A DNA stretch of 31,342 bases from Peduovirus P22H4, in sequence record NC_049385.1; one strand, written 5' to 3'. Positions within the stretch are counted from its first letter, which is position 1. Every line of letters starts with the position of its first letter. Position numbers and translations under genes: made by a program. Shown one piece after another: positions 9,458 to 17,310 of the stretch. The notes beneath the pieces are model-generated. The model saw only the letters and a list, made by a program, of their open reading frames with translations, was not told where the DNA came from and made no database searches.

Positions 9458-10093
9458 ATGAACACTCTCGCAAATATTCAGGAACTCGCGCGCGCACTGC
9501 GCAACATGATCCGCACCGGCGTTATCGTCGAAACCGACCTTAACGCCGGTCGCTGCCGTGTGCAGACCGGCGGCATGTGCACCGACTGGCTTCAGTGGCT
9601 GACCCATCGCGCAGGACGTTCGCGCACATGGTGGGCACCTTCCGTGGGGGAACAGGTGCTGATTCTGTCCGTGGGCGGTGAACTCGACACGGCGTTCGTT
9701 CTGCCGGGGATTTATTCCGGCGATAACCCTGCGCCGTCTGCGTCGTCTGATGCCCTGCATATCCGTTTCCCTGACGGGGCGGTGATTGAGTATGAACCTG
9801 AAACCAGTGCACTGACGGTAAGCGGAATTAAAACGGCCAGCGTGACGGCTTCTGATTCTGTTACCGCCACGGTGCCGGTGGTCATGGTGAAAGCGTCAAC
9901 CCGCATCACCCTGGACACCCCGGAGGTGGTCTGCACCAACAGACTGATTACCGGCACGCTGGAAGTACAGAAGGGCGGGACGATGCGCGGCAACATTGAA
10001 CACACCGGCGGTGAACTCTCATCAAACGGTAAGGTACTGCATACCCACAAACACCCCGGCGACAGCGGCGGCACAACCGGGAGTCCTTTATGA
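9458..10093 (+). CDS. V: Baseplate spike protein (P2 gpV)
   Basis: 211-aa ORF, P2 gpV length, in V-W-J-I synteny. Confidence 0.88.
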   Translation: MNTLANIQELARALRNMIRTGVIVETDLNAGRCRVQTGGMCTDWLQWLTHRAGRSRTWWAPSVGEQVLILSVGGELDTAFVLPGIYSGDNPAPSASSDALHIRFPDGAVIEYEPETSALTVSGIKTASVTASDSVTATVPVVMVKASTRITLDTPEVVCTNRLITGTLEVQKGGTMRGNIEHTGGELSSNGKVLHTHKHPGDSGGTTGSPL

Positions 10094-11350: not shown

Positions 11351-11873
11351 TTCGCGACTGCTGCCGACCGGCTCATCACCGCTTGAGGTCGCCGCCGCAA
11401 AAGCCTGTGCGGAAATTGAAAAAACGCCGGTCAGTATTCGTGAGCTGTGGAACCCGGACACCTGTCCGGCAAATCTGCTGCCGTGGCTGGCGTGGGCGTT
11501 TTCGGTCGACAGGTGGGATGAAAAGTGGCCGGAAGCGACAAAACGCGCCGTTATCCGCGATGCCTATTTCATCCACTGTCATAAAGGCACTATAGGTGCA
11601 ATCCGGCGTGTGGTGGAGCCGCTCGGCTATCTCATCAACGTGACGGAGTGGTGGGAAACCAGTGACCCGCCGGGCACCTTCCGGCTTGATATTGGTGTAC
11701 TGGAAAGTGGCATCACAGAGGCAATGTATCAGGAAATGGAACGGCTGATTGCTGATGCCAAACCTGCAAGTCGCCACCTTATTGGCCTGAACATTACCCG
11801 GGACATTCCCGGCTACCTGTTCGCCGGTTGTGTGGCTTACGACGGCGATGTAATTACGGTTTACCCCGGATAA
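11343..11873 (+). CDS. I: Baseplate/tail protein (P2 gpI)
   Basis: 176-aa ORF, P2 gpI length; start overlaps the end of J. Confidence 0.88.
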   Translation: MSDSRLLPTGSSPLEVAAAKACAEIEKTPVSIRELWNPDTCPANLLPWLAWAFSVDRWDEKWPEATKRAVIRDAYFIHCHKGTIGAIRRVVEPLGYLINVTEWWETSDPPGTFRLDIGVLESGITEAMYQEMERLIADAKPASRHLIGLNITRDIPGYLFAGCVAYDGDVITVYPG

Positions 11874-11883
11874 GTGAGGAATA

Positions 11884-14130
11884 ATGAGCACAAAATTCAG
11901 AACCGTTATCACCACTGCCGGTGCAGCAAAGCTGGCAGCGGCAACCGCGCCGGGAGGGCGGAAGGTCAACATTACCACGATGGCCGTCGGGGATGGCGGT
12001 GGTAAATTGCCTGTCCCGGATGCCGGACAGACCGGGCTTATCCACGAAGTCTGGCGACATGCGCTGAACAAAATCAGCCAGGACAAACGAAACAGTAATT
12101 ATATTATCGCAGAGCTGGTTATTCCGCCGGAGGTGGGCGGTTTCTGGATGCGTGAGCTTGGCCTGTACGATGATGCGGGAACGTTAATTGCCGTGGCGAA
12201 CATGGCCGAAAGTTATAAGCCTGCCCTTGCCGAAGGCTCAGGGCGTTCGCAGACCTGCCGTATGGTCATCATCGTCAGCAGTGTGGCCTCAGTGGAGCTG
12301 ACCATTGACACCACAACGGTGATGGCAACGCAGGATTATGTTGATGACAAAATTGCAGAACATGAACAGTCACGACGTCACCCGGACGCCTCGCTGACCG
12401 CCAAAGGTTTTACTCAGTTAAGCAGTGCGACCAACAGCACGTCTGAAACACTCGCCGCAACACCAAAAGCGGTAAAAGCAGCATATGACCTTGCTAACGG
12501 AAAATATACCGCTCAGGACGCCAGCACGGGGCGAAAAGGTCTTGTCCAGCTCAGTAGTGCCACCAACAGCACGTCTGAAACGCTCGCCGCAACACCAAAA
12601 GCGGTAAAAGCAGCATATGACCTTGCTAACGGGAAATACACTGCACAGGATGCCACCACCGCGCGAAAAGGCCTTGTTCAGCTCAGTAGTGCCACCAACA
12701 GCGATTCTGAAACGCTGGCCGCAACGCCAAAGGCGGTTAAGACAGCGTATGACCTTGCTAACGGGAAATACACTGCACAGGATGCCACCACAGCGCGAAA
12801 AGGTCTTGTCCAGCTAAGTAGCGCCACCAACAGTGATTCTGAAACGCTGGCCGCAACACCAAAAGCGGTGAAGTCTGCCAATGACAATGCTGAAAAACGT
12901 CTTCAGAAAGATCAGAACGGTGCGGATATTCCTGATAAAGAACGCTTCCTGAGTAACATTAATGTTTACAGCAAAGGTGAAGTGGATAAGAAAAAGGGAA
13001 TGCGAAAGTATTCGTTTGCAGCCCCTGCAAATGTCGTTGCCGGGAAGTGGTATCCCGTTATCTTTCGCCGTGCTGCCAGCCTTTCAGGAGAAATGGCATC
13101 CCGCGTCGTTATTTCCACTGGTTGTTATAACGGCGATTATGTAATGAATAACTGCGAGTTTAATGGCATGGTTATGCCCGGAGGATGGACTGATCGTGGT
13201 TCATATGCGGCAGGTTATTTCTGGACGTATCAGACCAATGAGCGTTCAATCCATTCCATTGTTACAAGCCTGAAAGATGATGATGTATGTAGTGTTTTTT
13301 ATGTTGAAGCCAGAGCTTTCCCTGTGCAAATTCTTGCAGAGGAAGGGCTAACGGTTATTGTTCCGACAGAGGATTATGTCGTCGGTCAAACGACATATAA
13401 GTGGGGGGCAACTAATCCCGCTACAGAAAGCACGAACGCACAGGCTATTCTGGATTTTAAAAATGGGCGCGGTTATTACTGCTCACATCCATTTATTTCT
13501 AACCTTTCAGGAAATGCTGCAACAGCCTCAAAACTCGAAACACCGAGGAAAATAGCAGGTGTTGCCTTTGATGGTTCTGGAGATATTACCCTTAATGCCA
13601 GAAATGTCGGTGCATTTGCACTTCGGCAGACAGGTAATACGGTTAATGGTGATACAGCCGTTGGATGGAATTGGGACAGTGGCGCATACAACGCTCTGAT
13701 TGGGGGAGCATCTGCATTAATTCTTCACTTTAATATAAATGCTGGTAGCTGCCCGGCTGTACAGTTTCGTGTGAATTATAAAAATGGCGGTATATCTTAC
13801 AGGTCAGCCCGTGATGGTTATGGTTTTGAATCTGGCTGGTCTGATTTCTATACCACAACACGAAAACCCTCAGCGGGAGATGTTGGTGCATACACCAAAG
13901 CTGAGTCAGATTCACGTTATGTGAGAGACATGCGGCTGGGCGGTGCATCTACATATAAACCAGCAAATAATGGTACTGCATGGACGCATCAGGCTCCGTC
14001 AGGTTGCGTATATACCGGCATTATTGTTCAGGATACCGGCTCAAACTCTGCCGATAACATTGGTGGCGTATATTACAGACCAGTGCAGAAATACATTAAC
14101 GGGACATGGTATAACGTGGCGCAGGTATAA
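11884..14130 (+). CDS. H: Tail fibre protein (P2 gpH-like) with expanded internal repeats and a divergent distal half
   Basis: 748-aa ORF, longer than the ~669 aa I recall for P2 H; N-terminal region is GC-rich and P2-like; contains 44-aa tandem repeats; the C-terminal half is lower in GC. Confidence 0.85.
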   Translation: MSTKFRTVITTAGAAKLAAATAPGGRKVNITTMAVGDGGGKLPVPDAGQTGLIHEVWRHALNKISQDKRNSNYIIAELVIPPEVGGFWMRELGLYDDAGTLIAVANMAESYKPALAEGSGRSQTCRMVIIVSSVASVELTIDTTTVMATQDYVDDKIAEHEQSRRHPDASLTAKGFTQLSSATNSTSETLAATPKAVKAAYDLANGKYTAQDASTGRKGLVQLSSATNSTSETLAATPKAVKAAYDLANGKYTAQDATTARKGLVQLSSATNSDSETLAATPKAVKTAYDLANGKYTAQDATTARKGLVQLSSATNSDSETLAATPKAVKSANDNAEKRLQKDQNGADIPDKERFLSNINVYSKGEVDKKKGMRKYSFAAPANVVAGKWYPVIFRRAASLSGEMASRVVISTGCYNGDYVMNNCEFNGMVMPGGWTDRGSYAAGYFWTYQTNERSIHSIVTSLKDDDVCSVFYVEARAFPVQILAEEGLTVIVPTEDYVVGQTTYKWGATNPATESTNAQAILDFKNGRGYYCSHPFISNLSGNAATASKLETPRKIAGVAFDGSGDITLNARNVGAFALRQTGNTVNGDTAVGWNWDSGAYNALIGGASALILHFNINAGSCPAVQFRVNYKNGGISYRSARDGYGFESGWSDFYTTTRKPSAGDVGAYTKAESDSRYVRDMRLGGASTYKPANNGTAWTHQAPSGCVYTGIIVQDTGSNSADNIGGVYYRPVQKYINGTWYNVAQV
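12406..12873 (+). repeat. Coding tandem repeat, 132-bp period, about 3.5 copies (44-aa tail-fibre repeat)
   Basis: Three full near-identical 132-bp units begin at 12406, 12538 and 12670, with a partial fourth from 12802; each encodes G(L/F)xQLSSATNS(T/D)SETLAATPKAVK(A/T)AYDLANGKYTAQDA. Confidence 0.9.
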
Positions 14131-14133
14131 TTT

Positions 14134-14661
14134 ATGCAGCATTTAAAAAATATTACGGCGGGTAATCCAAAAACGGTTGAACAATATCAATTGACAAAGG
14201 ACTTTGATGTTGTCTGGTTTTTTTCAGAAGATGGTAAGAACTGGTACGAACAACAAAAGTATTTTGCTGATGACACGATAAAAATAGCGTACGACAAAGA
14301 TAATATTATCCGCTATGTGGAAAAGGATGTGACAGCTATCAGACCGGATGGATTAAGTGTGGTTGAAGTGGCGGATATTACTGCTAATCGGCGGGCGGAC
14401 ATTTCAGGGAACTGGATGTTTAAGGACGGCAAAGTGATTAAACGCATTTATACGGAAGAGGAATTACAGCAGCAGGCAGAAATTCGGAAAGCCAGACTTC
14501 TTGCAGATGCTGAATCCGTGATTTTGCCGCTGGAGCGCGCGGTCAGACTGAACATGGCAACAGATGAGGAGCGTAGCCGACTGGATGCATGGGAGCGTTA
14601 CAGCGTTCTGGTCAGTCGTGTGGATCCTGCAAATCCTGAATGGCCGGAAATGCCGCAATAA
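14134..14661 (+). CDS. G: Tail fibre assembly chaperone (P2 gpG-like)
   Basis: 175-aa ORF immediately after H; AT-rich like the distal part of H. Confidence 0.8.
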
Positions 14662-14853
14662 GTTGTATGAGCTCTGGTGTGAGCTTACATATCTATGGCA
14701 CAGAGTAAAGACTAATCTGACAGTCCGCTCTGTGCCAAAAACGGGCAGAGTGAATGGCTAAGTCTAGCTCATTAGAAATGTTCGCTTCATGAAAATGGCT
14801 GCAGCAAGGATCTATCTCACTGCGGCCTCTTTACAATAACGAAATTTTGCGAG

Positions 14854-15609
14854 CTATTCCTTGGCCTCTTTATTTTTCTCGCCATCGCCAATGTAAAGAA
14901 GATAATCGTTTAAGGATATCCTTCCGGAGGGGCCGGTCCATGTTATCCATCCGTTCTCACGAAGATTAAATAATGCTTCCATGAACTCATTATCGTTAAA
15001 AGAATGATCCTCTGAGAACAGAATGTTCATTTTTCTCAATAGTTCTTCCACTTTAATCTTTTCATATCGCCTTATCAGACTTAGTGCTTTACGACGCATT
15101 AAGATTGTAGGTACTGCTTGTGAACGAATGGTTTTTTGTATTCCACTATCAAGAACTTTCTTGATCTTACTCTCTAACTCTTTGATTTTAGTTTCATTAT
15201 CTCCATTGGACTTAAGCTTTTCATCAACGATGCAAATAATTTCCTGACTAATGCTGTTCTTGAGGTTGTTTATTTTTTCTTCATTGTTGAGAATCTCATC
15301 AGAGCTTCCTGCATGGGGTTTTTTCCATATGTGCTGACGCATATCCGTTACCGTATCTCTCATCATAGAGAATGTATCTGAATATAACTTGTCAAATATT
15401 TTTTCCAGTCGTTCGACACTTGCCTGGATGTCTTTTGCTGCTTTAGTTGTCTCTTTAGAAGCCTCATTCGACATTTTATAAAAAACAAAAGAAAGCCAAA
15501 TAGCCCCAATGGCGAGTACTAATGAGGCTATTGTGGCAATAAAACCTATTATTGTTATTGCTGTATCTAATGTACCTGCTGCATCTGTGACTACTGTTTC
15601 TGCTGCCAT
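14854..15609 (-). CDS. Hypothetical membrane-anchored protein; AT-rich cargo gene at the P2 Z/fun hotspot, candidate exclusion or defence function
   Basis: 251-aa ORF on the opposite strand to the flanking late operons; ATG start with an AGGA-type RBS; one predicted N-terminal TM helix (ITIIGFIATIASLVLAIGAIWLSFVFY) then a Lys/Glu-rich helical region; about 33% GC on the line I counted. Confidence 0.7.
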   Translation of the reverse strand: MAAETVVTDAAGTLDTAITIIGFIATIASLVLAIGAIWLSFVFYKMSNEASKETTKAAKDIQASVERLEKIFDKLYSDTFSMMRDTVTDMRQHIWKKPHAGSSDEILNNEEKINNLKNSISQEIICIVDEKLKSNGDNETKIKELESKIKKVLDSGIQKTIRSQAVPTILMRRKALSLIRRYEKIKVEELLRKMNILFSEDHSFNDNEFMEALFNLRENGWITWTGPSGRISLNDYLLYIGDGEKNKEAKE

Positions 15610-16119
15610 ATATCCTCAATATTTAACCATACAGGGTAGCGTGTTTTAACCGCGGGGAAGTCGGGGTGGTGACACCCTAGCCTTACCCCGATTCCAGAGT
15701 ATTTATTTATCATACCATTGAAACTATTTAATTTTATCGAAAATTTTGTCAGAGCGTGACTGAAAAGTCTTCAGCACGTCAAGCATATCGTCGCCGTTCA
15801 ATTAACACTGAGCCTTTTCTTAGAGGGGTGGGCTGCGCAGTTGCGAGGTTATGCCCCAGTTCCTAGTTCCTCACTACATTCTAATTAAGCCGGCCAACTA
15901 AATGTCCGCTTTTCGCTCAAAGCAGACTGTCAGATTTGATAGCGTTTGGGCTATGTAAATTGTCAGTTGGAAAATGAGTGAGTACAAATCAGGATAGGCT
16001 GGCGGATTACCCGCCTTTTCTTTGTCTGTTGTTTCATCCCCTGACCAGCCAGGTCAAATAGCGTCTCATGCTCTGCACAACAGAAAATAGTTGCACCCAT
16101 TAACCACGGAGTTAAACGG
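15610..16119. promoter_or_regulatory. Long intergenic region holding the presumed cargo-gene promoter and the late promoter for FI (P2 PF equivalent)
   Basis: 510 bp with no ORF of 60 aa or more in the track; divergent layout between the minus-strand cargo gene and FI. Confidence 0.4.
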
Positions 16120-17310
16120 ATGAGTGACTATCATCACGGCGTGCAGGTGCTGGAGATTAACGACGGCACCCGCGTCATTTCCACTGTATCCACTGCCATT
16201 GTCGGCATGGTCTGCACGGCCAGCGATGCGGATGCGGAAACCTTCCCCCTCAATAAACCTGTGCTGATTACCAATGTGCAGAGCGCAATTGCAAAGGCCG
16301 GTAAAAAAGGCACGCTGGCGGCGTCGCTGCAGGCCATCGCTGACCAGTCAAAACCGGTCACCGTTGTCGTGCGTGTGGAAGACGGCACCGGCGACGACGA
16401 AGAAACGAAACTCGCGCAGACCGTTTCCAATATCATCGGCACCACCGACGAAAACGGTCAGTACACCGGACTGAAAGCCCTGATGGGCGCTGAGTCGGTT
16501 ACCGGCGTTAAACCGCGTATTCTCGGCGTGCCGGGACTGGACACCAAAGAGGTCGCCGTCGCACTGGCATCGGTATGCCAGGAACTGAATGCATTCGGGT
16601 ATATCAGCGCATGGGGCTGTAAGACCATTTCCGAGGCAAAAGCCTACCGTCAGAATTTCAGCCAGCGTGAGCTGATGGTCATCTGGCCGGATTTCCTCGC
16701 ATGGGATACGGTTACCAGTACCACCGCCACCGCGTATGCCACCGCCCGTGCGCTGGGTCTGCGCGCTAAAATCGACCAGGAGCAGGGCTGGCATAAAACG
16801 CTGTCCAACGTCGGGGTGAACGGTGTTACCGGCATCAGTGCATCCGTCTTCTGGGATTTGCAGAAGCCGGGCACTGATGCTGACCTGCTTAACGAGTCAG
16901 GCGTCACTACGCTGATTCGCCGCGACGGTTTCCGCTTCTGGGGTAACCGTACCTGCTCTGATGATCCGCTGTTCCTCTTTGAAAGTTACACCCGCACCGC
17001 GCAGGTACTGGCCGACACGATGGCTGAGGCGCACATGTGGGCTATTGATAAGCCCATCACCGCAACGCTGATTCGCGACATCATTGACGGCATCAATGCC
17101 AAATTCCGTGAACTGAAAAACAACGGTTATATCGTGGATGGTACATGCTGGTTCAGCGAAGAGTCCAACGATGCGGAAACCCTCAAGGCCGGCAAACTGT
17201 ATATCGACTACGACTATACCCCGGTGCCTCCTCTTGAAAATCTGACCCTGCGCCAGCGTATTACCGATAAATACCTGGCAAATCTGGTCACCTCGGTTAA
17301 CAGCAATTAA
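16120..17310 (+). CDS. FI: Tail sheath protein (P2 gpFI)
   Basis: 396-aa ORF, P2 FI length; followed by FII. Confidence 0.9.
   Translation: MSDYHHGVQVLEINDGTRVISTVSTAIVGMVCTASDADAETFPLNKPVLITNVQSAIAKAGKKGTLAASLQAIADQSKPVTVVVRVEDGTGDDEETKLAQTVSNIIGTTDENGQYTGLKALMGAESVTGVKPRILGVPGLDTKEVAVALASVCQELNAFGYISAWGCKTISEAKAYRQNFSQRELMVIWPDFLAWDTVTSTTATAYATARALGLRAKIDQEQGWHKTLSNVGVNGVTGISASVFWDLQKPGTDADLLNESGVTTLIRRDGFRFWGNRTCSDDPLFLFESYTRTAQVLADTMAEAHMWAIDKPITATLIRDIIDGINAKFRELKNNGYIVDGTCWFSEESNDAETLKAGKLYIDYDYTPVPPLENLTLRQRITDKYLANLVTSVNSN

Follow-up and report, generated by a model that had tools for sequence, protein, structure and literature searches.

Gene H and its setting in the window

The stretch of DNA analysed here (hereafter the window) comprises 31,342 nucleotides of Peduovirus P22H4, record NC_049385.1. 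Over its first 25 kb it matches Escherichia phage 9W (OM475431.1) with 100% identity; to phage P2 and other Peduoviruses, identity is approximately 96-97%. Tail-fibre gene H is an ORF of 748 aa at 11884-14130 on the + strand, and its product is 100% identical to the annotated GpH (tail fibre) of phage 9W. It lies within the gene order V-W-J-I-H-G, with ORF starts at 9458, 10090, 10442, 11343, 11884 and 14134, and these baseplate and fibre ORFs carry the GpV to GpG annotation in the identical 9W record.

An N-terminal tail-collar fibre domain (aa 1-151, 11884-12336, +) is the conserved part of H and matches Pfam PF12571 over profile positions 1-150 of 150 (E 1.3e-58). At the other end of the protein we found a putative distal receptor-binding tip of the Mu S' type (aa 572-746, 13597-14121, +), matched by phmmer to residues 318-486 of PDB 8ju3, the Mu tail fibre S/S' (E 2.5e-59). 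A weak Pfam gp37_C match also lies near the C-terminus, at aa 592-676. H is followed by gene G (14134-14661, +), a predicted tail-fibre assembly chaperone with a match to Pfam PF02413 Caudo_TAP (E 6.7e-34) and a GpG annotation in 9W. The PF12571 domain at the N-terminus, the place of the gene in the V-W-J-I-H-G order and the Caudo_TAP chaperone that comes next identify the product of H as a P2-type gpH. A further ORF of 251 aa lies downstream, for which no PADLOC match was found and all Pfam matches were sub-threshold.

A tandem array of tail-fibre repeats within H

Between these two ends, H carries one tandem array, reported by TRF at 12424-12869 with a period of 132, 3.4 copies, 90% matches, 0% indels and a score of 682. 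A repeat search of the window returned 225-nt copies starting at 12403, 12535 and 12667, spaced by 132 nt. When 12403-12891 was compared with itself, identity was 0.877 at an offset of 132 and 0.813 at an offset of 264, against a mean of 0.26 (sd 0.036, maximum 0.347) at the remaining offsets. The periodicity is therefore beyond chance, and the self-alignment that the sequence-only reading had named as a check bears it out.

In frame with H, the array resolves into three full 44-aa units (12403-12798) and a truncated fourth (12799-12891), which begin at aa 174, 218, 262 and 306 with no spacers between them. Unit 1 (aa 174-217, 12403-12534, +, KGFTQLSSATNSTSETLAATPKAVKAAYDLANGKYTAQDASTGR) corresponds to the best-matching Pfam stretch described below and is closest to the first units of other phages. 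Unit 2 (aa 218-261, 12535-12666, +) shares 87.1% DNA identity with unit 1, and is most closely related to the second unit of P37 and of four-unit alleles. Unit 3 (aa 262-305, 12667-12798, +) shares 90.2% DNA identity with unit 2 and 79.5% with unit 1. Unit 4 (aa 306-336, 12799-12891, +, KGLVQLSSATNSDSETLAATPKAVK...) is repeat-like over its first ~26-31 aa only, and the HMM of the units matches it at positions 1-31. Compared over 132 nt, its DNA is 61-65% identical to units 1-3, and over the first 78 nt it is 87% identical to unit 3. Unit 4 is the junction to the variable distal part, and it is followed by a Mu S-like linker (aa 337-362, 12892-12969, +, ...KRLQKDQNGADIPDKERFLSNIN...) that falls within a match of aa 288-362 to Mu S. 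On this layout, the array sits between the conserved N-terminal domain and what appears to be a swappable distal half, here with a Mu S'-type tip.

The sequence-only reading had described these repeats as near-identical at the DNA level. Its periodicity, position, copy number, coding of the repeats and protein length all stand, but at 79.5-90% DNA identity the units are too different to be called near-identical. It was right to regard them as tail-fibre repeat modules, since Pfam PF03406 (Phage_fiber_2) matches H in four stretches with 264.7 bits against a cut-off of 22 (E 1.8e-80), the best stretch being aa 170-210 on profile positions 1-41 of 42. H thus scores above the curated cut-off of the family and has its tandem units of ~40 residues in a tail-fibre protein, gpH. 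Taking the evidence as a whole, we consider it very probable that the array is made up of three complete copies of the known phage tail fibre repeat and a truncated fourth, located in the shaft of a P2-like gpH. The repeat family, its occurrence in P2 gpH and the mosaicism of tail fibres are already established, and this feature is an ordinary one. It also has little discovery value in itself, as the exact sequence is already in GenBank as the GpH of phage 9W.

The array also accounts for the length of H. P2 gpH has 669 aa, with one full and one truncated unit, and the part after the repeats is 417 aa in the H of the window versus 426 aa in P2. Two extra units add 88 aa and the post-repeat part is 9 aa shorter, giving 748 aa versus 669 aa, which agrees with the earlier suggestion that the repeats lengthen H relative to P2. 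Annotators can take the length difference from P2 as accounted for, and not as an error.

Age and divergence of the units

At the protein level, identity is 91% between units 1 and 2, 95.5% between units 2 and 3 and 86% between units 1 and 3, and the longest exact tract common to two units is 50 bp (at 12451 and 12583), followed by one of 44 bp. Differences between units are mostly synonymous, with dS values of 0.44 (units 1 and 2), 0.36 (units 2 and 3) and 0.94 (units 1 and 3), dN values of 0.063, 0.036 and 0.102 for the same pairs, and a dN/dS of ~0.1. The nearest relatives of the units in the window are units at the same position in other phages, and not the neighbouring units. For unit 3 these relatives are the third unit of four-unit alleles and the second of the three-unit fiAA91-ss, and for unit 4 they are the final units of arrays everywhere; units 3 and 4 are both 100% identical to their counterparts in the Escherichia coli NCTC9088 prophage. 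Synonymous divergence of 0.36-0.94, together with the positional counterparts in other phages, indicates that the array is old and that there was no recent duplication in this isolate. The units are paralogues of long standing, in which purifying selection has preserved the protein sequence and synonymous sites are well diverged.

When informative sites were painted across the units, we observed patchy sharing of variants between unit positions of different phages, a noisy pattern that fits occasional gene conversion.

Reliability of the assembled copy number

Tandem repeats can mislead assemblers, and the sequence-only reading had raised the concern that short-read assembly might have collapsed or expanded the units here, so that the copy number would be an error. 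Some observations in the wider family point that way, as two of the 80 IMG/VR contigs end within the array (L059 and L072) and many database homologues are labelled "partial". However, the units of the window are 10-20% diverged and share no exact match longer than 50 bp, a length that ordinary reads exceed, so that such reads, and k-mers above 50, can tell the units apart. In addition, this allele is present in 17 complete E. coli chromosomes, in each as a single ungapped match of 2247 nt with 97.5-98.4% identity, two IMG/VR loci encode an H of 748 aa, and the complete identity of units 3 and 4 to those of NCTC9088 also speaks against an error. Among the best 60 complete-genome matches, 59 are in register through all four units, the exception being SWHEFF_58 with three. 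Since the 9W record, although identical, is probably the same sequence as the window, it was not counted as independent support. We regard an assembly error in the copy number of the window as highly improbable, and the concern does not hold for this locus; the hazard of mis-assembly elsewhere in the family is not zero. The four-unit array is a stable, widely shared allele, and is neither a recent expansion nor an assembly artefact.

Copy number among relatives

The number of units varies among relatives from one to eight, as the sequence-only reading had anticipated when it proposed a comparison of H across related phages. Among named phages, we counted one unit in OU784549 (a P2-labelled record), two in P2, Wphi, pro147 and P2_AC1, three in P37 and fiAA91-ss, and four in 9W, vB_YpM_46 and vB_EcoM-12474II. 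The best 120 database proteins, among the matches listed, had two units (3 proteins), three (26), four (52), five (36) or six (4); this set was retrieved with a 349-aa query, contains matches up to ~611 aa and is biased to short or partial proteins, and so it shows variation only. The IMG/VR loci with complete ORFs had three units (9 loci), four (44), five (7) or eight (one, L082), in a set made up of the 80 loci most like a four-unit query and hence biased towards four units. Across 5426 complete E. coli genomes, the repeat region was matched in 1638 and at least 80% covered in 427. Some of the E. coli matches fall short of the query span by 132 or 264 nt, which points to three- and two-unit alleles.

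The number of units is not tied to the remainder of H. We aligned six allele pairs as DNA, and each differed by a single exact gap of 132 or 264 bp within the array in a background of ~98% identity, which shows that copy number moves by whole units, in frame, in alleles that are otherwise conserved. The three-unit fiAA91-ss and the four-unit locus L044, for example, encode N- and C-terminal protein parts that are 100% identical. Clusters of C-termini with at least 90% identity include alleles with three, four and eight units, with three, four and five, or with three and four, and alleles of the same tip cluster have three, four, five or eight units. The four-unit array is in turn joined to many distinct tip clusters. 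Two three-unit arrangements were seen, namely units 1, 2 and 4 in P37 and units 1, 3 and 4 in fiAA91-ss and SWHEFF_58, and units have therefore been lost or gained more than once. In L082, three adjacent units have 100% identical DNA, which may reflect a recent expansion unless that contig contains an assembly error. L067, a three-unit relative with the tip type of the window, has a frameshift at ...TPKAVK. Our literature search found no papers specifically on the copy number of tail-fibre repeats. Copy number is a simple means of telling apart H alleles that are otherwise near-identical.

How units may be gained and lost

The most plausible mechanism is that 132-bp units would be gained or lost by unequal homologous recombination or replication slippage, for which the identical tracts of 20-50 bp common to the units could serve as the substrate. 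The indel pattern would fit RecA-dependent unequal crossing-over, replication slippage or recombination between alleles alike. As 132 nt is a multiple of three, changes in copy number keep the reading frame.

Exact tracts of 44-50 bp between units suffice for homologous recombination, and the identical units of L082 suggest that the array has expanded recently somewhere in the family. Both points could be taken as signs of a contingency locus, fast and reversible, or of an array newly expanded in this isolate, through which fibre properties would be switched within a phage population. We find this most improbable, however, because the synonymous divergence between units and their counterparts in other phages mark the array as old, and because almost all of the best complete-genome matches are in register through the four units. 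Changes that stay in frame provide no on/off switch, and we found neither an invertible segment nor an inverted copy of H in 11500-16500.

Two known classes of variable locus were considered in this connection and set aside. A phase-variable contingency repeat locus does not describe an array with units 79.5-90% identical, an allele conserved in 17 complete genomes and changes that are in frame. An invertible tail-fibre segment of the Mu G or P1 C type, an idea raised by the Mu-like tip, was not found either, there being no inverted H sequence in 11500-16500. Inverted repeats of at least 20 nt numbered two in this interval, namely a pair of 34 nt on either side of the downstream cargo ORF and a pair of 20 nt at chance level.

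Probable role of the repeats in the fibre shaft

According to a cryo-EM preprint of 2026, the gpH trimer of P2 forms a fibre of ~54 nm, in which an N-terminal adaptor that contacts the baseplate protein gpI is followed by "two repeat domains", an extension, an anchor, a knob and a Mu-like tip (10.64898/2026.09.14.750843). PF03406 was listed in 2021 among the repeat families without known structure (PMC8078820). On the P2 fibre model, each unit in the trimeric fibre would most likely correspond to a single small "repeat domain" in the proximal part of the shaft, and the array would act as a modular spacer. By analogy, the fibre encoded in the window would have four repeat domains in its proximal shaft where the P2 model has two, and it is a reasonable inference that more units would make a longer fibre. 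An AlphaFold2 monomer of aa 150-350, built on an alignment of 20 sequences, gave an unusable model (mean pLDDT 37.5, pTM 0.25), which suggests no more than a short helix in each unit, at TPKAVKAAYDLA.

The occurrence of one tip with three, four, five or eight units, in clean steps of 132 bp, raises the idea that unit number might be an adaptive dial of fibre length, by which P2-like phages, gaining and losing whole units through unequal recombination, could tune the reach of an unchanged tip to the host surface, for example to the depth of O-antigen or capsule. We put this forward as a speculative proposal and think it rather unlikely to be correct. If it were true, the synonymous divergence between units would keep a favoured copy number stable. 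Compensation of tip length by unit number would point to a fibre of constant total length; the Spearman correlation of the two was -0.28 to -0.38 (p 0.06-0.11) in what is a biased sample. For practical purposes, natural alleles tolerate one to eight units, and the unit boundaries and the ...TPKAVK junction may offer natural in-frame splice points for the engineering of P2-type fibres or retargeted tailocins.

The array as a mosaic joint

Haggard-Ljungquist, Halling and Calendar reportedly proposed in 1992 that parts of tail fibres have been exchanged horizontally among P2, Mu, P1, lambda and T-even phages. In our comparison, the homology of H to its P2 counterpart breaks off within unit 2, at nt 719 of the gene and directly after the codons for ...TPKAVK, and several unrelated distal sequences come after ...TPKAVK, among them ...SAYDNAEKRLQKDQNGADIP..., ...TVMDETNKKAPLNSPALTG... 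and ...ANDNANGRVP... The conserved first ~26 codons of a unit also mark the join of different distal modules.

It is possible that the repeats matter mainly as DNA, with the first ~78 nt of a unit serving as a homology patch for tip swaps and changes in copy number arising as a by-product, an explanation that is compatible with a spacer role and to which we give some, though tentative, credence. On this view, the patch would be common to the tail-fibre genes of unrelated phages (P2 H, Mu S, lambda-type Stf and P1-like plasmids), and recombination within it would exchange the receptor-binding tips. The position at which the P2 homology ends and the onset of different distal sequences right after ...TPKAVK are in line with a role of this kind, as is the combination of one N-terminal part and four-unit array with many tip clusters. 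Mu S has one unit and the same linker, and the repeat region also matches lambda-type genes for a "prophage tail fiber N-terminal domain" and ~110-kb plasmids of E. coli. In phage L-413C, the similarity of gpH to P2 H reportedly ends at aa 207, inside the first unit (PMC7460101). On the other hand, a role in DNA alone would not need several copies, and it would not predict a dN/dS of ~0.1 over whole units in which synonymous change is saturating and the protein is conserved. The reading of the array as copies of a known protein repeat in the fibre shaft remains the one that we favour.

Comparison with other tail-fibre systems

The closest known system is P2 gpH itself. The N-terminal 173 aa are of the same type in both, the first 719 nt of the gene are 95.4% identical, and the two also have in common the sequence of the unit, the V-W-J-I-H-G order and the downstream chaperone G. 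They differ in that P2 has one full and one truncated unit where the window has three and one, and in that the distal half is of P2 type in P2 and of Mu S' type in the window. Within the family PF03406 / IPR005068, "Phage tail fibre repeat", all four units of the window match and there is no difference in kind, so that the array is one more example. The family was first noted in lambda Stf and occurs in lambda-type prophage tail fibres, including the collagen-like fibres of EHEC prophages (PMC3368898).

Mu resembles the window in two places (PDB 5yvq and 8ju3). Residues 99-173 of Mu S match aa 288-362 of H, which cover the last unit and the linker (E 7e-16), and the Mu S' tip matches the distal end of H as described above. 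Unlike the array in the window, however, Mu S showed a single unit aligned in the PDB search, and Mu switches its tips by inversion of the G segment (PMC11915804), whereas no invertible segment was found in 11500-16500 of the window.

The EHEC prophage fibres, with their collagen and coiled-coil segments, are similar to the array in being built of modular, trimer-compatible repeats with whole-repeat steps between alleles. The shaft repeats of T4 gp12 and gp34 may be a further case of modular, trimer-compatible repeats of variable number. Lengths of the EHEC prophage fibres differ by multiples of 3 and 7 residues (PMC3368898), and the RBPseg paper remarks that its domain D19 resembles part of the T4 short tail fibre. 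The repeats of the EHEC and T4 fibres are, however, of another sequence and size, whereas the unit in the window is one of 44 aa.

Mosaic structure of the tail fibre

The P2-type tail-fibre gene H (11884-14130, + strand; 748 aa) ends in a distal tip of the Mu S' type (13597-14121, aa 572-746), which was matched to PDB entry 8ju3 with an E-value of 2.5e-59. The last repeat and the linker that follows it (12745-12969, aa 288-362) also have a counterpart in Mu, namely residues 99-173 of Mu S. Together, these two matches on a P2-type fibre make H a mosaic of P2 and Mu. The intervening segment, aa 363-571, had no match among solved structures in the PDB search.

The DNA of the 132-bp repeat unit (44 aa, PF03406) is also found in other fibre genes. 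In complete E. coli genomes, lambda-type genes annotated as “prophage tail fiber N-terminal domain” share repeat DNA that is 82-90% identical over 60-190 nt, as do ~110-kb plasmids that may be P1-like phage-plasmids (matches H158-H171). Up to 11 matching places were found per E. coli genome. The unit is thus common to unrelated fibre genes inside single genomes.

Arrays in related IMG/VR loci

The H ORF of the IMG/VR locus L082 (IMGVR_UViG_2609459857_000006) is 961 aa long, and its array counts eight units. Units 4 to 6 show 100% DNA identity to one another, forming a perfect tandem repeat of 396 bp; either the array expanded recently or the contig was misassembled here. Among other IMG/VR loci, L067 combines the tip type of the window with three units and has a frameshift at the conserved unit motif ...TPKAVK, L060 breaks off after ...ERFLSNI, where unrelated sequence follows, and the H frame of L049 starts within the array. 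For L059 and L072, the contig itself stops inside the array. These five loci represent either pseudogenes or errors of sequencing or assembly that fall within the array or close to it.

A variable cargo slot between G and FI

A 251-aa ORF (14854-15609, - strand) lies between the chaperone gene G and the tail-sheath gene FI (flanks 14662-15950). Within the phage collection, the insert carrying it was found in Escherichia phage 9W alone. Its N-terminal segment, read by eye, suggests a hydrophobic stretch; a PADLOC search gave no match, and a Pfam search gave sub-threshold matches only. The ORF is flanked on both sides by a 34-nt inverted repeat (arms 14714-14747 and 15903-15936, 82% complementary), whose right arm overlaps a terminator-like stem-loop (15927-15904, - strand). 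The variable slot may have its conserved edges at this inverted repeat. Relatives have other cargo at this position: fun(Z) in P2 and a Shedu nuclease in the prophage of E. coli NCTC9088. One possibility is that the ORF is an accessory or defence gene, so far uncharacterised, in a known variable P2 slot.
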